64,000 bases of DNA from an uncultured bacterium (GCA_963819815.1 CAWFXL010000001.1:768001-832000); one strand, 5' to 3'; positions 25,426 to 62,917 are shown, counted from the first letter of the stretch. The notes: generated by a model not told the origin, from the letters alone. Translations and numbers: made by a program.

Positions 25426-28400
25426 ATGATAAGACCTTCTTATGTTGTCATACTAGTAGGATTGCTTGCCATCCCTCATCTTACTTTGCCTTCGTGCGCA
25501 GCAGTTCTTAAAAAAGAGGCTGCTCTTGTCGCTCCCCAAAAGCGCGAGTACGCCCTGCTTACACCTGAGCAACTTCAGAACATGATACATATCCATCACG
25601 AACTTCTCACAGTAGAAGACTCTTTGACTAAAAATTCTGAAACCTGGTATACGATTGCTAATGAATACCGACACCGCTTTGACCATCAAGAAGCGATCTC
25701 TTTTTCTACCCAAATCTTTGAGCTACTTACAGAGCGAAGCTCTTCTCTCGCTATCAAAACGCATAGTGCTCGATGCCTTGCAAAAATTATGCAAAGAAAC
25801 GGCCAGTTACCAGAAGCTCACGACTGGGCTATGAAGGCTGAAGCGTGGGGTCGTACTACTTCAGCGTATGGCGAAACACTCTATTTCTTGGGCTACCACT
25901 ATTACTACACACTAAAAAATCCTAATCAAGGAATAGCATGGTATCTCAAAGCACGACAATGGTCCTCCAATGGTAAGGATATGAAAATCTTTATTCAATC
26001 TCTTATCAGCCTTGGTAACGCATACTATAAAGATGAAGCGCATCAGACAGATGCACAGTGGTTTGTAGAAGCTCTCGAAGCGTTAACCATCTATAGGGAT
26101 ACAGAGCTCATAGCAAAAGCATATATCGGCCTTGGTAACGCCAGATACACCGATAAAAAGCATAAAAACCACGCTCAGTGGTACCTTAATGCCCTTGACG
26201 AACTTGGCCAAGACGGTGACATAACACTACGAGCAGCAGCTCTTATCGGTCTTGGCAATGCTCGCTATACTGATAAAAAAAAAGGACGAGAATATTGGTT
26301 TAAGCAAGCCCTTCAAGTACTCGGTCCCCGCGGCGACAAAAATCTAAGGGCTCAGGCACTCATGGGACTTGGTAACATCAAACATACTGATGAAACACAT
26401 AGAAGCCACACATGGTATCTCGAGGCACGTGAGCTACTTGGCGAAAATGGTGACAAAGACTTACGAGCACGAGCCTGCATTGGCCTTGGTAACGCCAAAT
26501 ATACTGATAATACTGATAGTAAGCTTAGCACCGATGCCCAATGGTATCTGAACGCGCTCAATTTGCTAGGCAAAGATGGCACTAGTAACCTACAGGTCCA
26601 AGCTTTCATCGGCCTTGGCAATGTCAGACATACTGATGATACTCATCCCAAAAGTCATGCCTGGTATCTCGAGGCCCTTGCACTACTAGGTAAAAATGGT
26701 GATAAAGAACTACGAGCACGAGCCTGCATCGGCCTTGGTAATGCCAAAGAACCCCATGCTACTGGCCAAAGCTACGTTCAGTGGTATGTAGATGCGCTCG
26801 GCTTATTGGACAAAGAGGAGGACAGAGATCTCAAAGCGCAAACTCTTATGAGACTTGGCCATGCCAGACATACTGACGCTCAACACCCTAAACAAGCCGA
26901 TTGGTACGTAGATGCTCGTAATACACTTAGTAAAGAAGGCACCAGAGATTTACGAGCTGAGGTTTGTATTTGCCTAGGCAATACGCGATATGTTGATGAT
27001 GAGATTTGGTCAAGTGAGCAGTGGTTTCTAGAAGCTCTCACAATTCTTGGCGACGACGGGGATAGAAGTCTTTATGCGCAAGCTCTCATTGGACTTGGAA
27101 ACGCTCAATACACCAACAAAAAACGTGACCAATCCTCATGGTTTAGAGAAGCACTCCAGATACTTGGTAAGAATGGGGTCACTACCCTTCGGGCCCAGGC
27201 TCTGATTGGCCTGGGGAATACTAGATATGTTGATAAGGAACATCCAACACAAGCCATATGGTACCAAGAAGCACTTATGGTACTTGAAGCAGAATCGCAC
27301 GGTGCCCTATATGCTCAAGCTCTTATCGGTCTTGGTAACTATTATTGTGGACAAAGAGTTAACGCCAAAGGAATAACCTATTTTCAGCAAGCTTTAACGT
27401 GTGCCCCTGCAGAAATGCATCCTTCCATTCAGCAAAAGATAGACCATTCGCAGGAAATAATAAGTACAGGCTCAGTTTGCACAAGCATTGATGCAGACCT
27501 AGAGACCCTTCTCATTCTCAAGGAAGATAGGGATGTGACCGTCCGAGCACAAGCTCTTATTAGACTTGCTAATTGGGGATATACTGACAGGGCTCATCCT
27601 AAAGAAGTTGATTGGTACCTCGATGCACTAGAGGTGCTCGGCACAAGCGGCAGTAACGATCTTCGAGCACGAGCGCTTATTGGGCTTGGCAATAAAAAAT
27701 ATAGCACTAAGACACGTGATAAGAATTACTGGTTTGTGCAAGCGCTAAATCTCCTCGAAAATGATGGTGATCCAGTACTCCAGGCAAAGGCTCTTATTGG
27801 CCTTGGCAATGGCAAATATTTCCATAGTGGAGGACGAGCTCACTGGTATCTGAAAGCACTCTCCCTACTCGGTGAAAATGCCCCCTCTGAAATCTCTGCT
27901 CAAGCACTTATTGGACTTGGCAATGCCCGATATACCGACAATACACATACGAGCAATACTCAATGGTATGTTGAAGCACTCTCCATACTTGGCAAGGATC
28001 GCGAAAAGAACTTACAAGCCAGAGCTCTTATCGGTCTTGGTAACGCTCGGCATGTTGATGAAACACATGCGAATCATGCCCTGTGGTTCCTCGATGCATT
28101 GAGAGTTCTTGGCGAAGATGGCGATAGAGATGTTCAAGCAAAAGCTTTCATTGGCCTTGGCAATGCTCAATATGTCGAGAAGGACAAAGAGCGAAGTACA
28201 TGGTATCTAAAGGCACTCGATGTGTTGGGTAATGACGGCAATCAAGATCTTCAGGCTCAAGCTCTTATCGGTCTTGGCAACTCTCGGTATGTGGACGAAA
28301 CCCATCCAGATCATGCTCAGTGGTACCATGATGCCCTCACGAAGCTCGGTGATGCAGGTGATAAAACTGTACGTGCTAACGCGCTGGTCGGACTTGGAAA

Positions 28401-29637
28401 TCACCACTGCTGGACAAGTGATAACGCACATGGCGTATCCTTTTATCAGCAGGCTTTAGTCTATGCATCAGAGGAAATGAAAGACAACATTCAACAAAAG
28501 ATAGACCAGGCTCAGACCTATGTTGAGCGTGAAAAATCCCGTATTATACGTCTTGATAAGCTCAAGAAACTCGTTAATAATGGCGACACAGCTCTACGAG
28601 CTCAAGCGCTGATTGAACTTGGTAAGCTAATCCATACGGACGAAACCCACCAAACTCCAGCTGCTTGGTTCCTCGATGCACTGAACGCCCTGGGTGATAC
28701 TGGCAATAGAGGACTTCGAGCTCAAGCGTGTATAGAACTTGGCAATACCAACTTTACTGATTCTCGACATACCCAAGTTCAGTGGTATCTCCATGCTCTC
28801 ACCATGCTCGATAGAGATCACGATCACGACCTCTATGCTGAAGCCCTTATAGGTCTTGGGGCTACAGACTACGTCGATGATACTCACAAAACTCAGGCTG
28901 ACTGGTTCTTAGATGCGCTCAGAATCCTAGGTAACGACGGTACTATAAGTCTCCGAGTAAAAGCTTACCTTGCTCTTGGCAATGGTCAGTATAGAGGTAT
29001 ACATAATGAATATGCTAATAGCTCTCATTGGTATCTAGAAGCACTCAGAATACTTGGCGATAAAGGTGATAACGTATTACGAGCTACCGCATGCATGGGT
29101 CTTGGTCGGGTGAGGTATTTAGATGCAACTCATACCCACAGCGGTCAATGGTACCTAGCTGCGCTTGCCATTCTTACTAACGGTGATGATACAAACCTAG
29201 AAGCTCAAGCTCTTCTTAACCTTGGTGACCTCAGATACCGGTGTAACCACCACCCTCCGACCTATTGGTACGAAAAAGCACTTACCGTTCTCGACAGAGG
29301 TGGCAGTAGAACTATACGAGCCCAAGTCCTTATAGGCCTCGGAGACTACTACTGTACTTGCGTGCCAAACGATATTCCGTTAGGAATAAAGAAATATCAG
29401 GAGGCTTTAGCGCATGCTCCAGAAGACCTGCAGGTCCTTATTAGAGAAAAAATAAACGCAAGGCAACCGTCTAGTCGACAAAAGAATGGGGGGGTTTTAG
29501 CTCAGGCTCCAGAGCACCTGCAATTCCTTACGAGAACAAAAAGGGAAACTCAGCAAGCAACTATTCGACAAGTAAGCCTTTTGCAGCGTGTCCAGCAGAT
29601 AAAAGACAAAATCGGCCAACCTGTCAGCTCTAAATAA
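25426..29637 (+). CDS. Giant secreted TPR-like repeat protein (about 27 x 38-43 aa LGN-type repeats)
   Basis: Signal peptide; consensus AQALIGLGNARYTDxxH...WYLxALxxLGxxGDxxLR. Confidence 0.85.
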   Translation: MIRPSYVVILVGLLAIPHLTLPSCAAVLKKEAALVAPQKREYALLTPEQLQNMIHIHHELLTVEDSLTKNSETWYTIANEYRHRFDHQEAISFSTQIFELLTERSSSLAIKTHSARCLAKIMQRNGQLPEAHDWAMKAEAWGRTTSAYGETLYFLGYHYYYTLKNPNQGIAWYLKARQWSSNGKDMKIFIQSLISLGNAYYKDEAHQTDAQWFVEALEALTIYRDTELIAKAYIGLGNARYTDKKHKNHAQWYLNALDELGQDGDITLRAAALIGLGNARYTDKKKGREYWFKQALQVLGPRGDKNLRAQALMGLGNIKHTDETHRSHTWYLEARELLGENGDKDLRARACIGLGNAKYTDNTDSKLSTDAQWYLNALNLLGKDGTSNLQVQAFIGLGNVRHTDDTHPKSHAWYLEALALLGKNGDKELRARACIGLGNAKEPHATGQSYVQWYVDALGLLDKEEDRDLKAQTLMRLGHARHTDAQHPKQADWYVDARNTLSKEGTRDLRAEVCICLGNTRYVDDEIWSSEQWFLEALTILGDDGDRSLYAQALIGLGNAQYTNKKRDQSSWFREALQILGKNGVTTLRAQALIGLGNTRYVDKEHPTQAIWYQEALMVLEAESHGALYAQALIGLGNYYCGQRVNAKGITYFQQALTCAPAEMHPSIQQKIDHSQEIISTGSVCTSIDADLETLLILKEDRDVTVRAQALIRLANWGYTDRAHPKEVDWYLDALEVLGTSGSNDLRARALIGLGNKKYSTKTRDKNYWFVQALNLLENDGDPVLQAKALIGLGNGKYFHSGGRAHWYLKALSLLGENAPSEISAQALIGLGNARYTDNTHTSNTQWYVEALSILGKDREKNLQARALIGLGNARHVDETHANHALWFLDALRVLGEDGDRDVQAKAFIGLGNAQYVEKDKERSTWYLKALDVLGNDGNQDLQAQALIGLGNSRYVDETHPDHAQWYHDALTKLGDAGDKTVRANALVGLGNHHCWTSDNAHGVSFYQQALVYASEEMKDNIQQKIDQAQTYVEREKSRIIRLDKLKKLVNNGDTALRAQALIELGKLIHTDETHQTPAAWFLDALNALGDTGNRGLRAQACIELGNTNFTDSRHTQVQWYLHALTMLDRDHDHDLYAEALIGLGATDYVDDTHKTQADWFLDALRILGNDGTISLRVKAYLALGNGQYRGIHNEYANSSHWYLEALRILGDKGDNVLRATACMGLGRVRYLDATHTHSGQWYLAALAILTNGDDTNLEAQALLNLGDLRYRCNHHPPTYWYEKALTVLDRGGSRTIRAQVLIGLGDYYCTCVPNDIPLGIKKYQEALAHAPEDLQVLIREKINARQPSSRQKNGGVLAQAPEHLQFLTRTKRETQQATIRQVSLLQRVQQIKDKIGQPVSSK

Positions 29638-38745: not shown

Positions 38746-38973
38746 ACAATGGTATCTCTTTCGTGGTGAACCACATAATGAACTATTTGGTTATTTTCTG
38801 AAGGCAACCTGGTTTCATACTAGCTACATCCTAATCTGTTCGTCTGAATAGCTACATCTGCAAACTATGGCTTCTCTTGTAAAGTCCATGGATGCCTAAT
38901 GTTCCGTTTCATGAAGAACTCTAGAAGGTATCAGTTTCTTCTAACCATTATTCAGATCATCATACACTGGTCC

Positions 38974-39270
38974 TAATGTTTTTCTCTCTCTTCATATCTC
39001 CATCGAGGCCCGAAGGTAATCGTTCAATTACCGGGACAACGTAAGCTAGTATAGCACAAAAAAGGGAGGTTGTGCCAAGGAATTCTTGGTCTAAGATATG
39101 CTCTATTATCCCTTCTGCAGGTTTAAGAGGCTAACCGTGCGTTGGGCTTGTACGATTTTATAACTGGGTAGGGTTCTTGCAATTTTTGTTTCAAGCGTGC
39201 CGCTCGAGTATCAGTGAGATTATGAGGTAATGGCAGGAGCTTCTTCATGAAAATCATTATTCTTCTTCAT
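38974..39270 (-). pseudogene. Degraded tandem copy of the 39257..39715 gene
   Basis: VVPVIERLPSGLD(fs)RYEERE at ~38975-39040 matches VLPVIEQLPRGLDIRYEERD; stops and frameshift present. Confidence 0.6.
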
Positions 39271-39715
39271 GGTCTCTCTCTTCATATCGAATGTCGAGAC
39301 CCCGAGGCAATTGCTCAATAACGGGAAGTACTGCACGTAGCATAGCATTAAAAAGAGGTATTTTAGTAAGATATTCTTGATATAAAGCATGCTCTTGTAG
39401 GTGTTCTGAACGCCGGAAAAGGATAACCGCGCGTTGGGCCTCCATAAATTCTTCAACAAGGTACGGGGTTACCAGCTTTTCTTGCGCAAGTTCATAGAGA
39501 ACGTGGGCAGCTTGATCTTCTTCGGGAGCTTTTTCAGCACTAAAGTACGCATGGTAGACCTCTTTGAGGAGCTCTTCAGTGATCACCATGCACTCTATGA
39601 ACTCAACAACCGGTTCTGCTCCAGCTTGAAATGGGGAAGAAAGCTTATCTTCTAACCCCTGTAGAGAATCCTGTAACTCAGCAATAATGTTCTGATACGA
39701 TTCTTTTTCATTCAT
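39257..39715 (-). CDS. Acidic helical protein, probable degenerate HEPN/HI0074-like fold
   Basis: Same helix pattern as neighbouring paralogs (LQDSLQGLEDKL; VLYELAQEKLVT; KIPLFNAML). Confidence 0.5.
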   Translation of the reverse strand: MNEKESYQNIIAELQDSLQGLEDKLSSPFQAGAEPVVEFIECMVITEELLKEVYHAYFSAEKAPEEDQAAHVLYELAQEKLVTPYLVEEFMEAQRAVILFRRSEHLQEHALYQEYLTKIPLFNAMLRAVLPVIEQLPRGLDIRYEERDHEEE

Positions 39716-39839
39716 ACTTCGTCCTTTGCATCGACCGACACTCTTTGTGTACCCGACTTCAAACGGAGCTTCGAAGCTCTCTCAAAATCCTTTGCCAACT
39801 TACACTAGTGAGATAGCACATGCATAGTATAAGCGAGCT

Positions 39840-40349
39840 CTAGTGCTGCTCAATTAAGGTGAGCATTTCATGCATCGTTTCGTAGTAGATACAAATCTTC
39901 TTACAACTCTCCTTGAGAAACTCCTGCTCAAGATACGAAACTCCAGGCCATCGAGCGGTCTCTAGGAAAAGTACAAACTTTTTCATATCGAGAAGGACAT
40001 CAACCTGCTGCTGAGTGATTCTCTGGTCTGACTGTAACTCACGTAGCTGCAAAGCCCTCACCTCCCATACCCATGCTGATTGGTCAACTTCAGGATACAG
40101 ACTATCTAAATATTCTGGAAGAATAATCCCATCAAATATCCAGTACGACTCTAAAAAATAGGATATACAGGCAACTTCTTCATCATACGTTAAGTCGGAC
40201 GACTTTTTAACAAGGTCGTCCAATGCGCTAAAATTTTCATTAAAGGTATGAAGGTAGTGTCTATTTGATTGTCTTCGTTGAAGATAGAAATATAAGATGA
40301 TGCCACCTAAGATAACTCCGTAGATAAGTAGTTTCACAATAAGATCCAT
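39840..40349 (-). CDS. Membrane-anchored probable degenerate HEPN-like protein
   Basis: N-terminal TM; ITQQQVDVLLDM, CKKICIYYETM resembles CKKLPRYYHIL of 40802..41326. Confidence 0.5.
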   Translation of the reverse strand: MDLIVKLLIYGVILGGIILYFYLQRRQSNRHYLHTFNENFSALDDLVKKSSDLTYDEEVACISYFLESYWIFDGIILPEYLDSLYPEVDQSAWVWEVRALQLRELQSDQRITQQQVDVLLDMKKFVLFLETARWPGVSYLEQEFLKESCKKICIYYETMHEMLTLIEQH

Positions 40350-40380
40350 ATCTAACTCCTACAGGTAACTACGAAATTTC

Positions 40381-40815
40381 TTAAAGAGCATGCTTACACA
40401 TAGTAGAATCGACGACTTTTTTAAGGAGCTGGTACAATGGTTCAGCACAAAGTTCAATAATCTTCTCTTCAGAATCAACGTCAACGTGACAAACTCGAGA
40501 TGCCATAGTAATTGCTGTAAGTCTGAGAAATAGCTCCTCATCTTCCCCGTCAAGAACACCTTTCTTTACAAAGTACTCAGCTATCTGCTCAGGATCCATG
40601 TTAGTTTGCTCTTCTTCAGGTAGCCCAGTAATCTCGCAAAGATAGGTAAAAAGAGCCATAAAACCTACGTTAAATCGCCTCATAAGAGCTTGATTCCTAA
40701 TAAATTTTGGCACTTCAGGTGCATCAAGGCTCATAAATTCACCGAATAGCTCTACACTATAAGCAAGATCTGCATGGAGATTTGAAGCTGTTTTCTTTTG
40801 ATTAGAATAGTTCAT
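40381..40815 (-). CDS. Degenerate HEPN/HI0074-like protein, type B3
   Basis: RNQALMRRF..F..L..YL, PEQIAEYFVKKGVL; overlaps upstream partner by 14 nt. Confidence 0.6.
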   Translation of the reverse strand: MNYSNQKKTASNLHADLAYSVELFGEFMSLDAPEVPKFIRNQALMRRFNVGFMALFTYLCEITGLPEEEQTNMDPEQIAEYFVKKGVLDGEDEELFLRLTAITMASRVCHVDVDSEEKIIELCAEPLYQLLKKVVDSTMCKHAL

Positions 40816-41326
40816 GTTCAGACTCCTCCGTCACTACCGATAATCTTTGAGAAAGCATCCCCGAAAAATTTGTCAGTATATGATAATAGCGAGGCAACTT
40901 CTTGCAATGGTCATCAAATACCTCGAGCTGTTCAGGCATCTCCCACCAACCTTTATCTAGAGATAAAAACTGCGCAGCCCCAATAAACTCAATAATATCA
41001 ACATATTCTTTGTCAGTAAGCAGTCCCTCGTTGTATAGGGCAAAGAGTACTATACTAATAGCCCGGTCTTGTTCCGTTTCCTCTTCATGGTGGTGCCCCT
41101 CTTCTTCCCCAGATGGAAGCATAGGATCATACATCATTTCAAGAAGGTGGGAAAAGGTATAAAAACACCTATTCAAAACTTCAAGTCGAGCCTCAAGGAT
41201 CATGCGTTCAATGAGAGGATCTTTTGGTGACCGTGGCACAGAAGATTCGAACTGCTCTTGAAGGAGGCTTAACCGAGCATTCAGCTCTTGAAAGACATCA
41301 ATGTCTACTTTATTGAGTAATGTCAT
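40802..41326 (-). CDS. Degenerate HEPN/HI0074-like protein, type A3
   Basis: ILEARL, LYNEGLLT, LPRYY, FSGML.QRL shared with 41902..42399. Confidence 0.6.
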   Translation of the reverse strand: MTLLNKVDIDVFQELNARLSLLQEQFESSVPRSPKDPLIERMILEARLEVLNRCFYTFSHLLEMMYDPMLPSGEEEGHHHEEETEQDRAISIVLFALYNEGLLTDKEYVDIIEFIGAAQFLSLDKGWWEMPEQLEVFDDHCKKLPRYYHILTNFSGMLSQRLSVVTEESEHELF

Positions 41327-41465
41327 GCTCGTACCCTTTCAACTGCATCCTGGTTTCAGACGAGGTTTGCTAACCAGAACGATTATGTAAACTTCACTAT
41401 ACACGCACTACAATGTACACGATTCTCAAAAAAAACCCAGAACTGTGGCTCCCAAGGATCTGACT

Positions 41466-41915
41466 TTAGAGAGGAGAATGGGAACTACCCAAATCAACAA
41501 CTTTCTTAAGAAATGCATACACCCGCTGAACGTTTATCATAATCTTCTCTTCATCAGGATATTTACCATGAGATGACCATCGAATCGCCATATACATACT
41601 TGCAAGCATGACATACGATTCTTTGTCGCTCTCTTCAAATAAGCCCTTCTTAATAAAATAGTCAGCAAACTCTTCAGGCTGCTTTTGTACAGACCCATCC
41701 TGTTGTACGAAATCATCAGGCATCGATGACGCCTCACGCAGATAGGCAAAAAGAATAACGAAGCTTAAGCTCAGGCGACGCATACATGCTTGATTACGTA
41801 TAAAACTTGGTATATCAGATGGCTCATGATGCAAAAAAGTACCAAAGAGTTCAACCGTCTGCGTAAGATCTGCAATCACTGAAGATGATGCTTTTTCTTT
41901 ATCATGTGCGTGCAT
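41466..41915 (-). CDS. Degenerate HEPN/HI0074-like protein, type B2
   Basis: ADL..VELFG.F, RNQACMRRL, PEEFADYFIKKGLF; 14-nt overlap with partner. Confidence 0.6.
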   Translation of the reverse strand: MHAHDKEKASSSVIADLTQTVELFGTFLHHEPSDIPSFIRNQACMRRLSLSFVILFAYLREASSMPDDFVQQDGSVQKQPEEFADYFIKKGLFEESDKESYVMLASMYMAIRWSSHGKYPDEEKIMINVQRVYAFLKKVVDLGSSHSPL

Positions 41916-42399
41916 GTTCAGACTCCTTGCTAACTACTAATCGTTGAGTAAGCATCCCCGAGAAAGTACTGAGACTATGATAGTAGCGAGATAACCTATT
42001 ACTGCGATCATCAAATATCTTATGTTTTTCAGAACTATTCAGCCAACATCTATCAGCAAACAGAAGCATCCCCGACTCAAAGAGCTCAACAAGAGCATCT
42101 ACTTCTTTTGGCGATAACATTTTCTCCCGGTACATCCAACCGATTAGTTCACCAAGAGCATTCTCGGGATTACTTCCCTCTTTCTTACTCAGATCAGAGC
42201 CGGTATACATAGATAGCAGAAGTTCGCGCAGCGTTGACTGACACTGCCAAAACGCATGAATCCGCGCCTCTAAAATTATGTTTCGGGTAACTGGATTCTT
42301 CGAAGCACGTGGAGCTAACGGTCCAAAGTGCTCTTGAAGACGTGCTAACTGATAATTAAAGTCTTCAAAGAGGCGCATATCAATTTTAAAGATGGCCAT
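41902..42399 (-). CDS. Degenerate HEPN/HI0074-like protein, type A2
   Basis: FEDFNYQLARLQE, ILEARIHAF, MYREKMLS, LSRYY. Confidence 0.6.
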   Translation of the reverse strand: MAIFKIDMRLFEDFNYQLARLQEHFGPLAPRASKNPVTRNIILEARIHAFWQCQSTLRELLLSMYTGSDLSKKEGSNPENALGELIGWMYREKMLSPKEVDALVELFESGMLLFADRCWLNSSEKHKIFDDRSNRLSRYYHSLSTFSGMLTQRLVVSKESEHART

Positions 42400-42411
42400 G
42401 GCGTATCCTTA

Positions 42412-42864
42412 TTAGAGGGCTGCTTCGAGTCCTGCCCTGGTAACTGGCATAATCGTTTGGAACCCAATAAACTTTTCCACAAAATCACACATACGAGGAA
42501 TATCTTTTAACAGATCATCATTTGAGCCATCAAAACCTTGGTCATAGTAGCTCAAACTTGCATAGATCATACTCATCTGAATCACCATCCGCTCATCATC
42601 AACAGTAAGCACATTGCATCTGCGACATCGGTTGATAATATTTTCCATGCCGAGCGACTCTTTTTCAGGGCTCAAACGTGATATCAAATAATTAAGAAAA
42701 GCAAAATACAGAACACAGTACCGACGTGCAACTGCAAAACGGTATACTTTAGTTCCGCCGTAGAGTCCGGTTGTCTCCTGCTTAAATAAAGAGCGTAATT
42801 TTAAGAGTGAGCTTTGCGCTTGTAATACCTGAAATTCATAAGAATCGTTAATGACCTTCGTCAT
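42412..42864 (-). CDS. Degenerate HEPN/HI0074-like protein, type B1
   Basis: RFAVARRY..LY..F..YL, IQM...LSYYD, LKDIPR; 17-nt overlap with partner. Confidence 0.6.
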   Translation of the reverse strand: MTKVINDSYEFQVLQAQSSLLKLRSLFKQETTGLYGGTKVYRFAVARRYCVLYFAFLNYLISRLSPEKESLGMENIINRCRRCNVLTVDDERMVIQMSMIYASLSYYDQGFDGSNDDLLKDIPRMCDFVEKFIGFQTIMPVTRAGLEAAL

Positions 42865-43339
42865 TTTTCTCCTCGTAATCTAGTAGGGTACACTGAGAAC
42901 TTACTTCATGTAGGAGACTACTCATGTTTCTATAATGTAAGGATATTTCCTGGATACCTCCATCAAATATACGGCGGTCTTCGTCAGACTCTAACCAGTT
43001 TCTATCAAGCGTTAAAAATTCTGCTAACTCAAGTTGGTTCAACAAGCTATGGGCCTGCTCATCATCAATAATATCGAGCATACATAACGTAATCACACCG
43101 GTTTCAATATCCCTGGGCATATCATCCTCAGCATTCTGAGTATGGATATCACCTATCATATTTCTCAACACATCGGACGTACGAACAAATGAAAATATTT
43201 GGGCATCTCGGACGAGCGCCCTATAGATGGGATCCTTCTGGAGTACATTAACTGAAAGCACATCATTCAATTCAAATAAAGACTTGCACAAGTCTTCAAT
43301 AACATCACCATGAACAACCACTGCATCTTCTCCAAACAC
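42848..43339 (-). CDS. Degenerate HEPN/HI0074-like protein, type A1 (start uncertain)
   Basis: LCKSLFELNDVL, RDAQIFSF (cf. RDxxIQRF), IIDDE, IFD..I..HY. Confidence 0.6.
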   Translation of the reverse strand: MFGEDAVVVHGDVIEDLCKSLFELNDVLSVNVLQKDPIYRALVRDAQIFSFVRTSDVLRNMIGDIHTQNAEDDMPRDIETGVITLCMLDIIDDEQAHSLLNQLELAEFLTLDRNWLESDEDRRIFDGGIQEISLHYRNMSSLLHEVSSQCTLLDYEEKNDEGH

Positions 43340-43342
43340 TAT

Positions 43343-43373
43343 GAAAAGACCCCAGCCTTACATAGCTGAGGTC
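43343..43373 (-). terminator. rRNA operon terminator
   Basis: On minus strand GACCTCAGCT-loop-AGCTGGGGTC-TTTT immediately after 5S. Confidence 0.75.
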
Positions 43374-43386
43374 CTTCTAAGTTTAA

Positions 43387-43503
43387 CCCTGGCAGTACCT
43401 ACTTTTCCAGGCCGTCACCAGCCAAGTATCATCGGCGCTGTAGACTTAACTTCCGTATTCGGAATGGGAACGGGTGTTTCCCTACAGCTATACCCACCAG
43501 GAA
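43387..43503 (-). rRNA. rrf: 5S rRNA
   Basis: CCTGGTGG...CACCCGTTCCCATTCCGAATACGGAAGTTAAG...CTGCCAGG. Confidence 0.96.
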
Positions 43504-43612: not shown

Positions 43613-46637
<3,025 letters not shown>

Positions 46638-46791
46638 AAATTTAGCTAGTTACCCATATTAGCTTAAGTACTTAATTTACAAATATTTCAAAGAACACAA
46701 GAAATTTTTTATCACTACAATAATTTCATATAATACTACGAAAATTTTATCAAAATACTTACTAAGAATACATTCTAAAATCAGCTATTAT

Positions 46792-46867
46792 TGGTGGAGA
46801 TGAGCGGATTCGAACCGCTGACCTTCCGCGTGCAAAACGGACGCTCTACCAACTGAGCTACACCCCC
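46792..46867 (-). tRNA. tRNA-Ala (TGC)
   Basis: Cloverleaf in the ITS, loop TT-TGC-AC, CCA end. Confidence 0.97.
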
Positions 46868-46925
46868 TATAATTTCATCAGAATAAACTCTATAGCCTAC
46901 AGTCAACCAATCATACAAATTTTAT

Positions 46926-47002
46926 TGGTGGGCCTAAGTCGACTCGAACGACTGACCTCCCCGTTATCAGCGGGGTGCTCTAACCACCTGAGCTATAGGC
47001 CC
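46926..47002 (-). tRNA. tRNA-Ile (GAT)
   Basis: Cloverleaf in the ITS, loop CT-GAT-AA, CCA end. Confidence 0.97.
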
Positions 47003-47097
47003 ATGAATCTGAAGCCTACCAGCTTCTATATAGAACTCCATTTAATACACACCTTATATAGAACAAGCTATAAATGCTGTTCAGATTATCTCCCTCG

Positions 47098-48646
<1,549 letters not shown>

Positions 48647-48909
48647 AAAATTGTGTTTTAGAGTTCGTTGATCTCAAGCTCAAAGGTTTTTTTGGAATTT
48701 TCGTATATTTCAAAGAAATAATTTTTTAACGATGCCAAAGCAGGCAATATTCTCAAAAGATATTACCCTTCAATGCATCTGGTAAATTTCAGAAATTTTT
48801 TACCCACTACTACTACAAGATATGAACTTAATTATATATAAAAAAACAATGATTTCAAGTTTTTGTTTCTGAGCTGAAACGTGATTCCGAATACGTCAAC
48901 TTGATTCTT

Positions 48910-48937
48910 ATTGTAACATCTTTAACAGGACTGTCAA
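48910..48937 (-). promoter_or_regulatory. rrn promoter (proximal, P2-like)
   Basis: TTGACA-N16-TACAAT. Confidence 0.8.
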
Positions 48938-49067
48938 CATTATTTCCATATCCTAAAAAGCTTGATCCAGACAGACAAAATGCAAAAACACCTGTGCAGG
49001 TTTGCAAAAAACTTTTGCCTTTGGACGACTTAGGGATAGCAAGCTTGTAGGTATATTTTTTATTCTT

Positions 49068-49095
49068 ATTGTAATAAGTTTATTTGAAATGTCAA
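49068..49095 (-). promoter_or_regulatory. rrn promoter (distal, P1-like)
   Basis: TTGACA-N16-TACAAT. Confidence 0.8.
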
Positions 49096-49280
49096 CATTT
49101 CTTTTCGTGGATTAAAAGTTCGATCCAGAGGCAACAAGTGTTATTAGGCATTCCAAAACAATATATAGCTGGCACGGGTCGTCACAGTCTAGCTAAATAT
49201 ACGTTCCACAAAGATATCAACTATGGGGACCTTTAATCAAAGGACAATGTTTTCTACTTTAAAGCTTTATCTCAAACTCA

Positions 49281-52582: not shown

Positions 52583-53347
52583 ATGGAATACAGATTTATC
52601 AAGCATTTAACGGAGCAGGGGGTGCGTCTCTTCACGACAGAACAGGCACGAGTCTATGCTAAACAGGTAGGTTTGGATGAGAGTACTATTACACCTCGAT
52701 TGTATCGGTTACACAAAAAGGGGCTTATAGAGCGGGTTATGAAGGGTCTTTACTGTCTAGCACCTGAATTTTTGGGAGGAATACCTCTTCATGAATACGA
52801 AATAGCCACAGCACTGACAACGCCAAGCTGCATAGCCTATTTCTCGGCGTACAGTTATCACAAGCTTACCGATCAAATAAGCTCAACTATCTATATCCTT
52901 GCACCTGATACTCCCAATACACCTCATTCCTATAACAGCTACAAGATAAAAGGTATTACCTACAAAATTCTTCGGACCCAAGAAGAGCACTTTTTTGGAT
53001 ATGAAAAACAATGGGTGAACCAAGTACTTATACCTATCACCGATCGAGAGCGCACTCTGATCGATGGTCTCATAAGACCTGATTATTGTGGTGGGTTTAG
53101 AGAAGTACTGGATGCCTACTCGCAAGCTATTAATACACTTGATATACAAAAAATAATCTCGTATGCTCAAAGAATAAACAACGCCACCTGTAAGAGGCTC
53201 GGATGGATACTGAGCACTCTCGAAATTGAAGACCGTCTTCTTACTCCCTTACTTACAAGATCCTCACCAAGTTATTCAAAACTCAATCCATCTGGCCCTC
53301 AAAAGGGGATCTGGAACAAAAAATGGCATATCTTGGAGAATCTATGA
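52583..53347 (+). CDS. abiEi: Type IV toxin-antitoxin AbiEi-family antitoxin
   Basis: N-terminal wHTH (L.RL.KKG.IERV.KGLY), SAYSYHKLTDQI, TDRERTLID....PDYCGG, KRLGWIL. Confidence 0.9.
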   Translation: MEYRFIKHLTEQGVRLFTTEQARVYAKQVGLDESTITPRLYRLHKKGLIERVMKGLYCLAPEFLGGIPLHEYEIATALTTPSCIAYFSAYSYHKLTDQISSTIYILAPDTPNTPHSYNSYKIKGITYKILRTQEEHFFGYEKQWVNQVLIPITDRERTLIDGLIRPDYCGGFREVLDAYSQAINTLDIQKIISYAQRINNATCKRLGWILSTLEIEDRLLTPLLTRSSPSYSKLNPSGPQKGIWNKKWHILENL

Positions 53348-54258
53348 CACGCCTTTATGATCGATTACAAGCACTTCGCAGAGAAAAGAATGTAAGCTGG
53401 GAACTTCTTGAGCAAGACTACCTATTATCCTGGATGTTAGCCGGCATTGCTGCAACGCCTGAACTCAAAAAACTTTTAGTCTTTAAAGGAGGAACAGCTC
53501 TTAAGAAGATGTATTTCGGAGACTATAGGTTTTCTCAAGATCTTGATTTCTCTGTCTTAGAAGTCCTACCTGAGGATATCGCTCTTGAAAACCTCATACA
53601 AGAAGCTTGCCATAATGCACAGATATTACAGGGCAAACATGGATACCCATTGAAAATTAGTAGTCAGTGGTACACCGAAAAAAAACCGCATCCTGAAGGA
53701 CAAAAAGCCCTGAGCATCTTAGCACAGTTTCCCTGGCACAGAGACTCCCAAACACGCATCATGATTGAAATAACGATGCAAGAGACTATTATATTACCAC
53801 CTGTAGAAAGGATCATCCTTCATCATGGATATAGTGAAGTACTCACCGGATCCCTCACTGTCTATACCTTAGAAGAGGTAATCGCTGAAAAATGTAGGAC
53901 GATCTTGCAGTATGCGATGAAGCTTCATGAACGAGGATGGGCTCGTTCTCGAGCGCGTGATTATTATGACTTATGGAGCATCCTAACAATGTACAAACAG
54001 CATTTGGATCTTTCAATAATCCCCCATATGGTTATAAAAAAATGTCACTATAAGGATATTGTCTTCTCAGGACCATCAGATCTTTTTACCCCAGTTCTAC
54101 TCGATGATCTCGAAACCGCCTGGGAGCATTGGCTAGGTCCCATCGTGCCCTTTCTTCCCGAGAAAAATAAAATGCTTGGGGAGCTGCGACAGGAGCTTGA
54201 TGTAATCTGGAGCAGATTTTCGCAGTCCAGTAAAGAAGAGAGCCAACAGCAATTGTAA
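53344..54258 (+). CDS. abiEii: AbiEii/AbiGii-family nucleotidyltransferase toxin
   Basis: EQDY, FKGGTALKK.Y...RFSQDLDF, EEVIAEK, RARDYYDLW; ATGA overlap with abiEi. Confidence 0.93.
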   Translation: MTRLYDRLQALRREKNVSWELLEQDYLLSWMLAGIAATPELKKLLVFKGGTALKKMYFGDYRFSQDLDFSVLEVLPEDIALENLIQEACHNAQILQGKHGYPLKISSQWYTEKKPHPEGQKALSILAQFPWHRDSQTRIMIEITMQETIILPPVERIILHHGYSEVLTGSLTVYTLEEVIAEKCRTILQYAMKLHERGWARSRARDYYDLWSILTMYKQHLDLSIIPHMVIKKCHYKDIVFSGPSDLFTPVLLDDLETAWEHWLGPIVPFLPEKNKMLGELRQELDVIWSRFSQSSKEESQQQL

Positions 54259-54535: not shown

Positions 54536-56224
54536 TCATTGGCAAGGTGTATCAAATCCATCTATTTTGAGATATTTTTCTAAATGCTTGTAATAGAACG
54601 CACAATCTTCCCCAAAAAAAGCTTCATCTCCAAATACATCGTTAGGCTTCCTTACTGGATATTGTTTGCTTTCTTGAGCCACCCTATCCATAAGACTTGA
54701 ACAGACAATTGGTATGACCTCATTGCCGAGAAATGGCCGAATGTAATTCTCAAGTTTTGAAATGAGTAAAGAGCGCTGTATTTCATCTTTTACCATACAA
54801 CTAATGCTTTGCTCCCACAAGGGAAGAAGTTTGCCGCCGTTACGTTTGTAGAGATAGATCACTTCAAGAGCTTTTTTTAAGGCCTTTGTCCATTGAGGAG
54901 CAACAACTCGGCCTTGCTTATTTCTTTGCTCAGCAGCTGCAAATAAGAGTACCTCATAGATACAATAAGCTGGCAGATTAAGGTGCATACCTAAGATATG
55001 CACAAGTTGTGCAACCATTTGAAGAGCAATTCTCGCCTCGCGCTTGGTCGGCGTGTATCTTCGTGTACATGCCTGGAGAAGCATTTCATAATAGTGGTGC
55101 TTATCAAATTCCTTATATCTAGGCCATATGTGGACAGGAGAATTTACCGGAAAGATACCCATATTAAAAGAATTGGACACAGTGGATCCAGCTCGTTCTG
55201 GAAAACTTCCATCCATCGAAGCCCCTGATTCAAGAAGTCGCTGCCCTGCACGAAGTGATCCCTTGCTACAAGCGACCAGCCAGGGGGTTAATCCGTGCCA
55301 ATTTCTTTGCTCTTTCGGTGCGCCTCCCTCAAGTAAGAGTTGTACCATGCAAGCCCTATCAAGCTCTACGGCAAGGTGAAGTGGCTGCATAGAATCTTTA
55401 TCAACAGAATCAACGGGTGCTCCCGCACGTAAAAGAGCTCTGAAAAGATTTTCATTATCCTCTTTGATTGCAAAACGTAAGAGTCTATCAAGGTGCTTTT
55501 TTTTTCTGAGAATATCTACATCGGTACTCGTACTATCCTCTGAATCTGCACAAACTAACGTGAGATGTTGGGCAATCGAACGCAATGAATCTGCAGATAG
55601 AAAAACCAGATGCGCATGAGTAATCGTTTCTGCTCCAGCAGCTCGTAATTCTTGCTGTAGAACATCATCATCAGATGAAAAGCAACTGAGTACAATGTTC
55701 AGCGAAAGCTGCACCTCTAATCGTCCTAGAATTCGTTGATATGACTGATTGGTAAAGTAAGTATCTATCTGAGCAGTGTCATAAATTTTTTGAATACACT
55801 TGGTAAGTTGAAAAAGGCTCCTGATATTTCTCTGAAAGAACGGTACCATAAGATAGTGCTTTTCCAGATTTGGATGTAGTGCTCGATACACCACATCTGG
55901 ATTTTTCAAGTGAAATGTTTGGTTAGCCTGCAGAATATTGTTTTGAAGTTCGTCAAGAAATAAATATAGGCATTCAATATGCCCATGTATTGCAGCCCAT
56001 TCAAAGGGTGAGTAACCAAACTGATCATGCACTGAAAGTAACGCGCCCCTTTTAAGAAGCTCTCTTGCAAGAGAAGCATCACCCACTTTTGCTGCACCGA
56101 TCAGTCGCTGATTCAGCTCATCTTGTAGTTCTTTTGTTTGTGCAGCCTCAGCCTGTACCACCATGGCACAAAGGCTACCTGAGATAAGGAGCAGGCCAAT
56201 CAGCCCCAGTAAGCGTTCTTTCAT
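54536..56224 (-). CDS. Secreted ankyrin-repeat protein (paralog 4)
   Basis: Signal MKERLLGLIGLLLISGSLCAM; ankyrin repeats (QPLHLAV, LLEGGA); conserved C-terminal block. Confidence 0.88.
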   Translation of the reverse strand: MKERLLGLIGLLLISGSLCAMVVQAEAAQTKELQDELNQRLIGAAKVGDASLARELLKRGALLSVHDQFGYSPFEWAAIHGHIECLYLFLDELQNNILQANQTFHLKNPDVVYRALHPNLEKHYLMVPFFQRNIRSLFQLTKCIQKIYDTAQIDTYFTNQSYQRILGRLEVQLSLNIVLSCFSSDDDVLQQELRAAGAETITHAHLVFLSADSLRSIAQHLTLVCADSEDSTSTDVDILRKKKHLDRLLRFAIKEDNENLFRALLRAGAPVDSVDKDSMQPLHLAVELDRACMVQLLLEGGAPKEQRNWHGLTPWLVACSKGSLRAGQRLLESGASMDGSFPERAGSTVSNSFNMGIFPVNSPVHIWPRYKEFDKHHYYEMLLQACTRRYTPTKREARIALQMVAQLVHILGMHLNLPAYCIYEVLLFAAAEQRNKQGRVVAPQWTKALKKALEVIYLYKRNGGKLLPLWEQSISCMVKDEIQRSLLISKLENYIRPFLGNEVIPIVCSSLMDRVAQESKQYPVRKPNDVFGDEAFFGEDCAFYYKHLEKYLKIDGFDTPCQ

Positions 56225-56273
56225 GGAATTTTCCTTGTAACGTCAATCATTATACCCTCTAACCATCCTCAAC

Positions 56274-57884
56274 TCATAAATCATCTAGTCCATCTATATG
56301 CAGATACCCTGCTAAATGCTTGCAATAAAGCTCATGATCCTGGCCAACTGGTAAAGATTCGCTATCGTCAGCAAATTTCCGCATAAGGCTCAAACAGACA
56401 ATGTTTTTGACATCATTGCCCAAATAGGGCTGCATAAAGTTCACCAGTTTAGCAATGATAAGAGCTTGCTTTTGTGGATCTTTGACGAGACACCTCATGG
56501 TTTGTTCCCATAGGGGAAACAGCTTATTGCCGTTACATTTGTAGAGATAGATTACTTCAAGATCTCTTTTAAATGCCTTCGTCCATTCTGGTGCAACCTC
56601 TTGCCCCTGCGCATCATGTTGTTCTGCAGTTACAAATAAAAGTATCTCATAGATAACATAAGCTGGAAGATTACAGCGCATACCCAAAATATCTATAAGA
56701 CATGCGACATTTTGAAGTGAACGTTTCGCCTCTTTTTTCGTGGGCATATATCTTCGTTTACTTCCCTGGAGAAGCATTTTACAATAAAGCTGTCGATCGG
56801 GTGTACTAAAATCGAGGTACGGCCTTCGAAGGTTGCCCCTATCACCTGAACGAATGCGAGCCCCTGATTCGTAAAGTATTTTTGCTACATCAAATGATCT
56901 ACATGCACAGGCAATTTCAAAAGCGGATCTTTTAGTGGAATCTTTGTCTTCAATCCGTGCTTTTGCATCAAGTAACAATTTTGCCATGCGTGCATTATTA
57001 TTGTGTGCTACATGATGAAGAGGTGTTTTAGAAGAATCGTCAGTATCATTAATATTTGCACCCACCTCTATAAGAGCTCTCAAAAGTTCTTCGTTCTCAA
57101 GCTGAGTAGCAAAATGCACAAGAGAGTTAATATGGATCTGCATAAGATCCTCGGTATTATTTACCTCATCAAAATCATCATCAAGCCTTTCTGCTTGCAT
57201 TAAAACTCGATAAAGGAATGGATAAAGGAATGGGTCTGTCGTACGTAGTTCAGGGAGGCGTTCAAGAAGAGGAGTATCATCAGTATGCTGCGCTCCCGCT
57301 GATACTAACGCTTGCTGTAGAGCAGGCTTATTATTAGAACAGGAAAGCACAAAGTTAAGTGAAAACTGTACTTTTAATCCCGTAAGTATCCGTTCAAGCC
57401 AAGGTATTAAGGGATCGTAATAGTCAAGGTCTTCTTCCATCCATTGACGAATCTTTCTAATACGCTCCACAAGCTCATCAAGACTTCTTTCATCCCTTTG
57501 AAATAAATCTATAATCCACCACCTATTATTTTTCCAGCGCACATTCAACCTTCCAAGAAGTGCATAGTTTCCGGAATGCGTTTGTCTAGCCAGTGGAGTA
57601 TTGCTTTCAAGTTCATCAAGCATAACACCTATGCATTCAGTATGCCCACGTATTGCGGCCCAATCAACGGCTGTAAGACAATAATCTTCCCCAACAATTA
57701 AAGCGCCCCTTTTAAGGAGCCCTTTAATAAGAGATACATTACCCACTTTTGCTGCACTGACCAGTTGCTGATTCAGCTCATTTTGTGCTACTTGTGTTTG
57801 TTGAGCTTCACTCTGTGCGTTCATAGCGCAAAGACTACCTGAGATAAGGAGCAGGCCAATCAGCCCCAATATACGTTCTTTCAT
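56274..57884 (-). CDS. Secreted ankyrin-repeat protein (paralog 3)
   Basis: Same signal; TPLHHVA, GANIN. Confidence 0.88.
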   Translation of the reverse strand: MKERILGLIGLLLISGSLCAMNAQSEAQQTQVAQNELNQQLVSAAKVGNVSLIKGLLKRGALIVGEDYCLTAVDWAAIRGHTECIGVMLDELESNTPLARQTHSGNYALLGRLNVRWKNNRWWIIDLFQRDERSLDELVERIRKIRQWMEEDLDYYDPLIPWLERILTGLKVQFSLNFVLSCSNNKPALQQALVSAGAQHTDDTPLLERLPELRTTDPFLYPFLYRVLMQAERLDDDFDEVNNTEDLMQIHINSLVHFATQLENEELLRALIEVGANINDTDDSSKTPLHHVAHNNNARMAKLLLDAKARIEDKDSTKRSAFEIACACRSFDVAKILYESGARIRSGDRGNLRRPYLDFSTPDRQLYCKMLLQGSKRRYMPTKKEAKRSLQNVACLIDILGMRCNLPAYVIYEILLFVTAEQHDAQGQEVAPEWTKAFKRDLEVIYLYKCNGNKLFPLWEQTMRCLVKDPQKQALIIAKLVNFMQPYLGNDVKNIVCLSLMRKFADDSESLPVGQDHELYCKHLAGYLHIDGLDDL

Positions 57885-57920
57885 ATTTTCCCATCATATC
57901 TTTATTGGGAAGGTGCTCAC

Positions 57921-59532
57921 CTAACCATTACTATTAATTCCTTCAATGCGCAGGTAGTCGCGCAAATGATTAAAATAAATCGGGTTAGGCTTATTGTCTT
58001 CACCAAAAAGCTCCCCTTCATAATTGAGCCGGTAATAATTTCCATGCATCGTACTTCTTCGTCCACCACCTTCATCAGAAACCTTTCTCATAAGACTCTG
58101 ACAGACAATACCTTTGACTTCATTCCCCATAAAAGGCTCTATATATGCACCAAACTTTGCCATGAGCTCATTCCGTTCCACAGGGTCTTTTGTTAAGCAG
58201 TTAATGATTTTTCTCCACAGCGGAAGAAGATCATTACCATTACATCTATAGCGATAGATAAGATCAAGATCTTTTTTTAATGACAGAGTCCAGTCAACTT
58301 GTTGTTTGTTAGCATTTTCTTGTTCGCCCGCTGCAGATAAAATGATTTCATAGACGATATAAAACGGCAATCGCAGCCGAACCGCAAAGATATACAGTAA
58401 GGTTGCTATGTTTTGTAGGGCCTTTTTCGCTTCTTTCCTTGCATCTTTCCATGTAGGTGCATATCTTCTGACACTTGCCCGTAGAAGCATTTTAAAATAG
58501 GAGTCTTTTTCTGGGGGATCTACATAATATTCTCGATCCATTGTAGCACCTAATTCTAGAAGAAATTGTGCAGTGTCCCATGCTCGGTTACCAAGCGCAC
58601 TTCGAAAAGGGGTTGTTGAATGGCCGCTTTTACTTTCGATAGATGCACCTGCAGCAATTAATAATTTTGCGACAGGCACATTATTCTTCCTCGCTGCAAC
58701 GTGAAGCGCCGTCCTCTTCGATTCATCAGCAGCGTTAGGATTTGCTCCTGCTGCTAAAAGAGCTTTCACAAGATCCTCATTTCCATCAGGTAGCATAACG
58801 AGAAGCTTATCAATATGCTCCTTTACTCGAGCTGCACTTATATTATAGCGGCCATAATCTACTACGCATTCAGGGGCAATAGAATAAAGTGCTTCATGAT
58901 GCCAAATATGCTTAGCACCTGCTGATCGCAATGCCTTGGATAAGGATTCTGATGCAAACCAACTCAGAACAGTGTCTAGAGCAAGCTGCACTTTAGATCT
59001 CCGTGCAATGTCCACCGAGTATATGTAGTAGTTAGGCAAACATAAATTGAAATGTTTATATGTTTTCTCTAGATGTTCACGGATATTCTGTATGCGCCGA
59101 GTTAAGGCGTAATAGTCACGCCCATTTCTTTTAAAGAGAGGTACAACAACATCCCGTTTCTTTTTCAGCTCTTTTAGGTCTAAATATCTTCTATCAAGAG
59201 AATCATCTTTTGGCACAACCCCTGGGTGCGGTTGGTGGAGTGTTATTTTCAAGTTCATCAAGAAATATATTTACACAGTCAATATGCCCATGTATTGCTG
59301 CCCATTCAAAGGCCGTATACCCTAATCGATCTTGTTCTGCTAGTAAAGCACCCTGAGCAAGAAGAGTTTTTATGCGTTCAGTTTCACCAGCTTTTGCAGC
59401 ACTGAAGAGCTGTTGTTGCACATTCTCTACTACTGCAGGAAATGCAACTTCTTTTGTTCGTTCTTGGTTCATAGCACAAAGGCTACTTGAGACGAGGAGC
59501 AGGCCAATCAGGCCCAGTATACGTTCTTTCAT
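57921..59532 (-). pseudogene. Secreted ankyrin-repeat protein (paralog 2), split by a +1 frameshift
   Basis: ORFs 59203..59532 (signal + first ANK) and 57921..59261 join into one family-length gene; span 1612 nt = 3n+1. Confidence 0.85.
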
Positions 59533-59593
59533 CTTTTCCTTTAATATCTTTATTGGCTAGACAAGCTGCTTTATCGGTTAGCTAATCATTTTC

Positions 59594-62548: not shown

Positions 62549-62917
62549 TTACCGAGTAATTTCCTCTTTTTCTACATCATCATTAAAAAAAATAGAAAGT
62601 GAGCGAGTCGCTTCAGATGCAAGCTTATACACTACATACCCTAAAGCAGCCAAGGCAATTACAGAGCAAGCCCTACCTGTAGTAGCATCGTTAGGCGTCC
62701 TTGCCTGCAGAGCATCCATATTTGCCCTCAAGGCTTCGGCATTGGACCATACTCTTTTACCCAAGTGATGAATTGCAGCTACACCGATCAAAGTTGCAAT
62801 CCCTTTTAGTGCCCCAACTCGACCATGAAGAGCTCGTTCATTACAGGTGACCCTGGTCGCAGATAACTCTGCTGTCCCGGTAAGAGCTACAAAAAGAACG
62901 AGCCCAGAACCCTTCAT
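62549..62917 (-). CDS. Small membrane protein (paralog of 62914..63318)
   Basis: Signal + VTCNER..HG..G.LKG + 2 TMs; 4-nt overlap with upstream paralog. Confidence 0.65.
   Translation of the reverse strand: MKGSGLVLFVALTGTAELSATRVTCNERALHGRVGALKGIATLIGVAAIHHLGKRVWSNAEALRANMDALQARTPNDATTGRACSVIALAALGYVVYKLASEATRSLSIFFNDDVEKEEITR

Follow-up and report, generated by a model that had tools for sequence, protein, structure and literature searches.

What is encoded by eight small genes that stand in a row directly behind an rRNA operon in an uncultured, amoeba-associated bacterium, and what might their products do? The genes occupy positions 39257-43339 on the minus strand of a window of 64,000 nucleotides (nt) of DNA (GCA_963819815.1 CAWFXL010000001.1:768001-832000; the window is this whole stretch). 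The explanation judged best, with a probability of about 0.6, is that the array consists of duplicated A/B heterodimers of the HEPN fold, belonging to two unnamed protein families, which arose by lineage-specific expansion in Candidatus Dependentiae, have no catalytic activity, and bind rather than cut.

Organization of the array

Eight consecutive co-directional open reading frames (ORFs) of 144-174 amino acids (aa) make up the array. They are listed here in order of transcription, with isoelectric points (pI).

A1, 42848-43339, minus strand: 163 aa, pI 4.25; falls in the A1 clade of the family tree.
B1, 42412-42864, minus strand: 150 aa, pI 7.59; starts 17 nt inside the end of A1, behind GAGGAG.
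A2, 41902-42399, minus strand: 165 aa, pI ~7.8; structure modelled.
B2, 41466-41915, minus strand: 149 aa, pI 5.64; starts 14 nt inside the end of A2, behind AAGGAG; structure modelled.
A3, 40802-41326, minus strand: 174 aa, pI 4.54; paralog of A2.
B3, 40381-40815, minus strand: 144 aa; paralog of B2; starts 14 nt inside the end of A3, behind GGAGGAG.
S7, 39840-40349, minus strand: 169 aa; divergent member of the A family with an N-terminal membrane anchor and without a B partner.
S8, 39257-39715, minus strand: 152 aa, pI 4.53; divergent member of the A family without a B partner.

The three A-B pairs have the geometry of translational coupling, with a Shine-Dalgarno sequence and the start of B lying within the 3' end of A, and the other genes are separated by 12 nt (B1-A2), 139 nt (B2-A3), 31 nt (B3-S7) and 124 nt (S7-S8). 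A Shine-Dalgarno-like sequence is present before each of the eight genes. An earlier sequence-only reading of this DNA had described the eight co-directional ORFs, their A/B alternation and overlaps of 14-17 nt, and both the coordinates and the overlaps (17, 14 and 14 nt) were reproduced. The start of A1 is probably not the annotated one but an in-frame GTG at codon 7 (43321), which would give a protein of 157 aa, because its closest relatives (P0022 and P0023, 46-48% identity) begin there and GGAG lies upstream.

A scan of genome contigs recovered a single further locus, on a contig (L001) of a Candidatus Dependentiae metagenome-assembled genome (MAG), where the same eight genes stand in the same order and the array DNA is 94% identical. 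Between the two arrays there are 98 synonymous and 51 non-synonymous differences, for a ratio of non-synonymous to synonymous substitution rates (dN/dS) of 0.14 overall and 0.06-0.27 per gene; therefore, by this comparison of sequences, all eight genes are under purifying selection and are real. A scan of the window with the family profiles found no further copies of A or B, and no mobile-element context was seen around the pairs. Folding of the intergenic RNA was no better than that of shuffled sequences between B2 and A3, between S7 and S8, or downstream of S8 (z +0.83, -0.77 and +0.30). Beyond S8, before a gene for a HAD hydrolase, ~510 nt (window 38746-39256) have no convincing ORF, no remnant detectable with the profile hidden Markov models (HMMs) of the A and B families, and no Rfam match.

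Two protein families

By sequence comparison, the eight genes are members of two families, A (A1, A2, A3, S7 and S8) and B (B1, B2 and B3). When BLASTP was run on a database of the eight proteins, A2 and A3 were 35.5% identical (E 8e-31) and B2 and B3 38.7% identical (E 2e-31), which bears out the earlier description of each as a clear pair of paralogs; the matches of A1 to A2 (24% identity, E 3e-9) and of B1 to B3 (33% identity over 61 aa, E 0.002) are weaker. Among 1.84 billion proteins, the A-family profile retrieved 46 representatives of clusters at 50% identity (E<=1e-3), all of 141-180 aa except two (81 and 224 aa), and the B-family profile retrieved 20 clusters at 90% identity that are of a B2 type and a B1 type, the relatives of the latter including P0065-P0073. 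Relatives of A type and of B type share the length of their longest contig in five cases (2043, 22547, 5566, 6040 and 4332), as do ones of B1 type and B2 type in one (228211), a hint that such genes may be neighbours in other genomes as well.

The two trailing genes had been taken for singletons, but both are divergent members of the A family. An A-family HMM built without S7 and S8 matches them at E 5e-9 and E 2.9e-10, respectively, among 622 window ORFs, and with bridging sequences also removed it still matches S8 at 8.7e-8 and S7 at 1.2e-5; the ORFs of the window that come next in the A-family HMM search are the B genes (E 0.009-2.5). S8 is 28% identical over 158 aa to another family member (P0057, E 1e-9). 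In a maximum-likelihood tree that took in all 55 rows of the A-family alignment, none being dropped, there is a clade of A2 and A3 (support 100/99), a clade of S7 and S8 (98/95), and an A1 group.

No usable match was obtained with Pfam, NCBIfam, PADLOC or PHROGs for any of the eight; one match to QatB (PADLOC, E 0.018) and several to PHROGs (E >= 0.043) were rejected as chance-level. A search of plasmids and phages with A1 (tblastn) found nothing. Between the two families, profile-profile alignment (hhalign) of A with B, using the deeper alignments, gave 121 collinear columns with a probability of 52% and E 1.4e-4.

Predicted folds

AlphaFold2 models based on the family alignments are confident and all-helical both for A2 (predicted local distance difference test score, pLDDT, 92.9; predicted template modelling score, pTM, 0.86) and for B2 (pLDDT 85.0, pTM 0.80). 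The helices of the A2 model span residues 8-22 and 36-67, followed by an insert (69-91) and by helices at 97-114 and 123-153, and the order in B2 is equivalent. When the A2 model was compared with the PDB by Foldseek, 11 of the 11 top-ranked matches were HEPN-type, with YutE (1ylm) first at E 8.9e-3; they are accompanied by the HepT/MntA entries 6m6u, 5yep, 6m6w and 7bxo (target-normalised template modelling score, TM, 0.66-0.72) and by 8xeh, and at lower ranks by the HI0074-type chains 1wwp, 1wty and 1jog. The B2 model matched 1wwp, 7bxo_G (TM 0.67/0.75), 1ylm, 5yep and 7ae2. A HEPN-like fold had been proposed from the helix pattern before any model was made, and the dominance of HepT, YutE, HEPN-MNT and HI0074-type chains among the top matches of both families agrees with that proposal.

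Sequence links to known HEPN families are confined to two of the 55 A-family members and none of the 21 B-family members. One of the two (P0041) aligns by residues 8-142 with positions 3-125 of the 126 in the NTase_sub_bind profile (PF08780) at E 1.1e-3, its 19.4 bits falling below the cut-off of 31.8, and the other (P0045) matches the HepT-like profile (PF01934) below cut-off at E 0.043. The nearest neighbours of P0041 in a protein language model are HepT-like and NTase_sub_bind clusters, with scores of 0.85-0.88 that lie under the lead threshold of 0.9, and its ten highest-ranking named neighbours in the atlas are all of a single clan. An ESM atlas search with A2 gave no usable match, and the BFVD viral fold library had no match above TM 0.47. 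With respect to the HEPN superfamily (Pfam clan CL0291), then, the A2 and B2 models agree with the fold, every match lying above E 1e-3, and sequence profiles do not place the proteins in the clan, and the signal from the models is best described as consistent but statistically soft.

Absence of the catalytic motif

In a survey of HEPN domains (PMC3710099), the motif Rx4-6H at the start of helix 4 is given as the strongest conserved feature and predicted ribonuclease (RNase) site of HEPN proteins, and families without conserved polar residues are regarded as probably non-catalytic binders. No Rx4-6H occurs at a conserved position in the family alignments used for residue counts, which hold 55 sequences for A and 21 for B. 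Strings that fit Rx4-6H occur in 31 of the A sequences and four of the B sequences at scattered places, and the maximum of histidine in any column is 17/55 for A and 6/21 for B. The statement that the catalytic motif has been lost is thus supported for both families, neither of which has a conserved histidine.

At the junction of helix 3 and helix 4, the A family has the conserved string D-[RK]-x-W-L-x3-[ED], in which D116 is present in 38/55 sequences, W119 in 34/55 and an acidic residue at 124 in 42/55. Position 117 is basic in 35/55 (arginine in 27, lysine in 8), and histidine is found five to seven residues later in only 0-3 of the 55. This sequence pattern may be a vestige of the motif in which arginine was kept and histidine was exchanged for an acid. 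At the junction in the B family, R112 is present in 10/21 sequences, those of B2 type, and histidine follows four residues later (H116) in 3/21, two of which are B2 and B3 of this genome.

Predicted heterodimer

Prediction of the A2-B2 complex, with both proteins given as family alignments, gave ipSAE interface scores of 0.82, 0.82 and 0.81, whereas the highest-scoring of three controls had 0.00. Of 157 solved complexes, 116 reach the pass mark for this score, as do two of 215 mismatched pairs, a calibration that is only rough here because purpose-made alignments were used. At least 81% of contacts are shared between the runs, and the partner pLDDT is at least 80. The interface brings residues 9-52 and 115-119 of A against 16-54 and 114-119 of B, and includes the most conserved polar residues: in A, [DE]44 (48/55), A45, D116 and W119; in B, A43, R46 (21/21) and R47. 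The heterodimer that the sequence-only reading had imagined is thereby supported, as a prediction, for one cognate pair.

Charge, membrane anchor and insert

Description of the proteins as mostly acidic holds for five of the eight (pI 4.25-4.72) and fails for B2 (5.64), B1 (7.6) and A2 (7.8), the last two being near neutral. Across the families, the A representatives have a median pI of 4.57, with 33/46 below pI 5 and an acidic C-terminal tail in 23/46, and the B-type proteins are near neutral (pI 5.2-8.4). The net charge is -22 for A1 plus B1 and -30 for A3 plus B3, and such strong negative charge argues against general RNA binding and in favour of a basic partner or a small ligand. S7, as had been recognized, carries a membrane anchor: its Kyte-Doolittle mean over 19 residues is 2.37 at residues 3-21, the other seven proteins peak at 1.27 or less, and hydrophobic segments recur at the N termini of the S7 relatives P0050 and P0058. 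A3 has a lineage-specific acidic, histidine-rich insert (EEEGHHHEEE, residues ~66-78, window 41090-41130) in the region separating helix 2 from helix 3, which could possibly bind metal.

Proposed origin and function

These observations can be assembled into a model in which A and B are helical proteins of ~150 aa with a HEPN-like fold, nearest the branch of HepT/DUF86 and HI0074/NTase_sub_bind, and in which both have lost Rx4-6H. The gene for an ancestral HEPN homodimer would have been duplicated into A and B, whose common origin is proposed because their profiles align collinearly over 121 columns with 52% probability, and the A/B pair would then have been duplicated as a unit. Each pair would be made 1:1 and form a pseudo-symmetric heterodimer that packs helix 2 of A (40-52, [DE]-A-[RQ]-I) on helix 2 of B (38-50, A-x-x-R-R), so that the loops where helix 3 meets helix 4 (A 115-119, D-[RK]-x-W-L; B 114-119), the expected place of the HEPN active site, face each other across the interface. 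The resulting cleft is predicted to be incapable of HEPN-type RNA cleavage, because there is no histidine in it, and to serve as a putative binding site. Given the strong acidity of the A-type proteins, the partner would more likely be a basic protein, a cation or a small ligand than bulk RNA, and S7 would place one version of the module at the inner membrane.

Alternative explanations

Several results weigh against this model. The likeness to HEPN could be convergent, the families being generic up-down helical bundles of independent origin with a function unrelated to HEPN biology, and helical bundles match one another easily. For neither model did Foldseek give a match at E<=1e-3 (best E 0.009-0.1, query-normalised TM 0.43-0.67); none of the eight window proteins matches a Pfam model of the HEPN clan even at E<=10; no HEPN match came from searches of PDB sequences with the profiles of A and B or with P0041, where the top results were designed proteins and an unnamed protein recorded as 'Endoribonuclease' (9wiw, E 0.044); and the viral fold library was empty-handed and the atlas scores fell below the lead threshold. 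A first comparison of the A and B profiles, with small alignments (11 and 8 sequences), found no relation. Convergence is nevertheless considered unlikely. The two families were modelled independently, and in both of them HEPN chains outrank designed bundles and other helical proteins; one family member (P0041) covers PF08780 from end to end, and the named neighbours that rank in its top ten in the atlas share one clan; and in both families a vestigial basic residue persists at the helix-3/helix-4 junction, where the motif is placed in PMC3710099. The complex itself was predicted for the A2-B2 pair, its interface residues taken together show no higher conservation than other residues (Mann-Whitney p 0.21 for A and 0.26 for B), and its score may partly reflect likeness to the solved HEPN dimers that exist; the expressions 'same dimer mode' and 'former active-site cleft' are readings of the helix order in the models. 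Finally, B2 and B3 of this genome do have R-x3-H at the junction, which together with the frequent arginine at the A junction leaves room, as far as sequence can say, for residual or alternative catalysis.

Two alternatives would retain an active enzyme. Many type II modules have an acidic gene first that overlaps the second, and the pairs could be of a toxin-antitoxin-like kind, in which B, a toxin derived from HEPN, has a non-canonical site (the invariant R46/R47, Y58 and D97, with R-x3-H in B2 and B3) and the acidic pseudo-HEPN A sits as antitoxin on the dimer interface of B, keeping B from forming the homodimer on which an active cleft would depend. The acidic gene does come first here, with an overlap of 14-17 nt, A is acidic (median pI 4.57) where B is near neutral (5.2-8.4), the predicted interface covers the invariant arginine pair of B, and the R-x3-H of B2 and B3 would fit a toxin; against these stand the presence of the junction histidine in only 3/21 B sequences with no B column above 6/21, the lack of both R and H at the junction of B1-type proteins, the absence of any PADLOC match beyond the chance-level one, the unfitness of the solo A genes S7 and S8 for an antitoxin role, and the arrangement of three pairs and two solo A genes as a fixed chromosomal array that is syntenic in the second genome, has dN/dS of 0.06-0.27, and lies in no mobile-element context. 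This explanation is rather improbable. It is more doubtful still that the array encodes a nuclease with a rebuilt composite site, in which R117, E124 and D116 of A with R46, R47 and R112 of B cleave RNA in the absence of the canonical histidine: HEPN families with relocated catalytic residues are described in PMC3710099, position 117 of A is basic in 35/55 and position 124 acidic in 42/55 sequences, and the array adjoins an rRNA operon, but the alternative sites in that account still use histidine, of which neither A nor B has a conserved one, and two of the three dimers have so negative a net charge that RNA substrates are disfavoured. Dependentiae are protist-associated. That the expanded family might be exported to or displayed towards a protist host would be in keeping with this association, with a lineage-specific expansion in a genome that also has four tandem ankyrin-repeat genes, and with the membrane anchor of one paralog type; the chance of it is slight, however, as no hydrophobic or signal-like segment stands at the N terminus in seven of the eight proteins, the neighbourhood of the array showed no secretion genes, and the anchor of S7 is followed by basic residues (RRQSNRH) that, by the positive-inside rule, would keep the domain in the cytoplasm. 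Non-catalytic A/B heterodimers remain the preferred explanation.

Position behind the rRNA operon

A complete rRNA operon, with 16S, two tRNAs, 23S and 5S (43387-43501), lies directly upstream of the array on the same strand, and one further feature stands between it and A1.

Hairpin, 43344-43377, minus strand: terminator-like, with a U run, between the 5S rRNA and the start of A1; stem of 14 pairs, six of them GC.

The minimum free energy of the hairpin is -27.5 kcal/mol (z -2.47), and one of 200 shuffled sequences folds as well. It is separated from A1 by 5 nt if translation begins at the annotated GTG and by 23 nt if it begins at the GTG at 43321. A scan for promoters found 14 sites where 12.5 +/- 3.4 were expected, and is uninformative on promoters. 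Because a distance of 5-23 nt after the terminator leaves A1 no room for a promoter of its own, it is proposed that the array is probably expressed by read-through from the rRNA operon, tying the abundance of its proteins to the synthesis of ribosomes, and a protein-coding array may in this way be a 3' extension of the rRNA operon in its expression; the case for read-through is made from spacing.

An extended version of the model can be built on this position: a HEPN RNase homodimer would have been split into an obligate A/B pseudo-enzyme, the dead cleft of which senses or clamps a basic partner connected with ribosomes (the end of an rRNA precursor, a ribosomal protein or a nucleotide signal), and the array, as the 3' extension of the rRNA operon, would be a Dependentiae-specific module for growth-rate-coupled ribosome biogenesis or quality control with soluble and membrane-tethered versions. 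This proposal is speculative and is given a low likelihood.

The rRNA operons of the window and of the second genome are only ~90% identical (window 44598-49176 versus L001 2659-7143), compared with 94% for the array, which is the reverse of the usual pattern and may be due to chimeric assembly of a MAG or to replacement of an rRNA operon. The 23S rRNA gene of L001 (5125-8791) holds a group I intron at 7143-7812 (RF00028, 52.8 bits) that is absent from the window 23S and encodes an ORF for a LAGLIDADG endonuclease (7239-7766, E 2e-20).

Other genomic surroundings

Absence of an MNT partner, already claimed for this locus, was found again when 61 window ORFs were scanned: none is an MNT-type nucleotidyltransferase (PF01909-type). 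The only nucleotidyltransferase found is AbiEii (PF08843, 53323-54258), which lies ~10 kb off, beyond the rRNA operon, in a module of its own.

AbiEi antitoxin and AbiEii nucleotidyltransferase toxin, 52583-54258: pair of genes that overlap by 25 nt; self-contained module.

Downstream of the array are genes for the HAD hydrolase, a DUF2000 protein and a coiled-coil protein. A suggestion that the array proteins act as decoys against HEPN toxins found no support, as no HEPN toxin was found in the window, and identification of the array as a set of immunity genes for polymorphic toxins was rejected because no toxin gene flanks it.

Elsewhere in the window, the four tandem paralogous ankyrin-repeat genes (562, 536, 446 and 538 aa; 54536-61210, minus strand) are a second lineage-specific expansion. 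Two small ORFs (134 and 122 aa) at 62549-63318 on the minus strand overlap by 4 nt in a layout like that of a toxin-antitoxin pair and have no Pfam match at E<=0.01, and a repeat protein of the HEAT/TPR kind encoded at 25426-29637 is, at 1403 aa, large for a genome of ~1.6 Mb.

Relation to known HEPN systems

The best or near-best fold match to both A and B is HepT (DUF86, PF01934) of class I HepT/MntA systems such as that of Shewanella (SO_3166; PDB 5yep, 6m6u and 7bxo), with target-normalised TM of 0.63-0.75, and HepT, which works as a dimer, resembles them in being all-helical and ~130-150 aa long. According to PMC7641770, HepT carries the motif RX4HXY and is AMPylated by an adjacent MNT protein with the motif GSX10DXD. 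The array differs from this type VII toxin-antitoxin system in having neither RX4HXY nor an MNT protein with GSX10DXD, the partner here being a second HEPN-like protein. Chains of the HI0074/NTase_sub_bind group (PF08780; PDB 1jog, 1wty and 1wwp) are fold matches in both families, account for the only near-significant sequence link (that of P0041, E 1.1e-3), and are also atlas neighbours; [RK]-D-A-[RQ]-I-x-x-F in helix 2 and the C-terminal I-P-x-Y-Y seem to resemble the HI0074 pattern as quoted in the sequence-only reading. Unlike in HI0074, the junction histidine is lost and there is no neighbouring MNT protein like HI0073, and the sequence link falls short, at 19.4 versus 31.8 bits for P0041 and none of the eight window proteins matching PF08780. 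YutE of Bacillus subtilis (1ylm), a small helical protein of the cytosol without an assigned function, ranks first among the Foldseek matches of A (E 8.9e-3) and third among those of B. Its sequence identity is only 11-13%, and it is presumably encoded by a single-copy gene and not by an A/B array.

HEPN families that lack Rx4-6H wholly or in part have been described before. PMC3710099 names PaREP1/8, part of MtlR, Swt1 and MNT-fused HEPN domains, proposes a non-catalytic binding or regulatory role, and mentions that PaREP genes occur in tandem repeats; PMC7641770 adds class II HEPN/MNT, in which HEPN is without RX4H. The motif-less PaREP1/8, MtlR, Swt1, MNT-fused and class II HEPN proteins are archaeal, eukaryotic or MNT-linked single families. 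The array differs from them in that a bacterial symbiont lineage encodes two distinct HEPN-like families as coupled A/B pairs, for one of which a heterodimer is predicted; no sequence link to them was found. No description of an array of HEPN A/B heterodimers, or of these two families, was found by literature searches on HEPN, Dependentiae, toxin-antitoxin systems and pseudoenzymes. The view of the array as an undescribed module therefore needs to be narrowed, since motif-less HEPN families, some of them tandem, are already in PMC3710099, and the finding is only partly new: what is new is that A is paired with B, that the genes stand in tandem and that no nucleotidyltransferase accompanies them.

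Significance

If confirmed, the array would be an instance of a HEPN nuclease fold converted to a non-catalytic module of heterodimers that is encoded as coupled pairs and dispenses with the nucleotidyltransferase usual for this branch of HEPN proteins. Two unnamed families, with 46 A clusters (at 50% identity) and 20 B clusters (at 90%), would join the HEPN clan, and the transition from an enzyme homodimer to a pseudo-enzyme heterodimer would have a clean case. For the poorly understood, uncultured Dependentiae, the array flags an expanded and strongly selected set of genes that is unusually placed, right behind the terminator of an rRNA operon.

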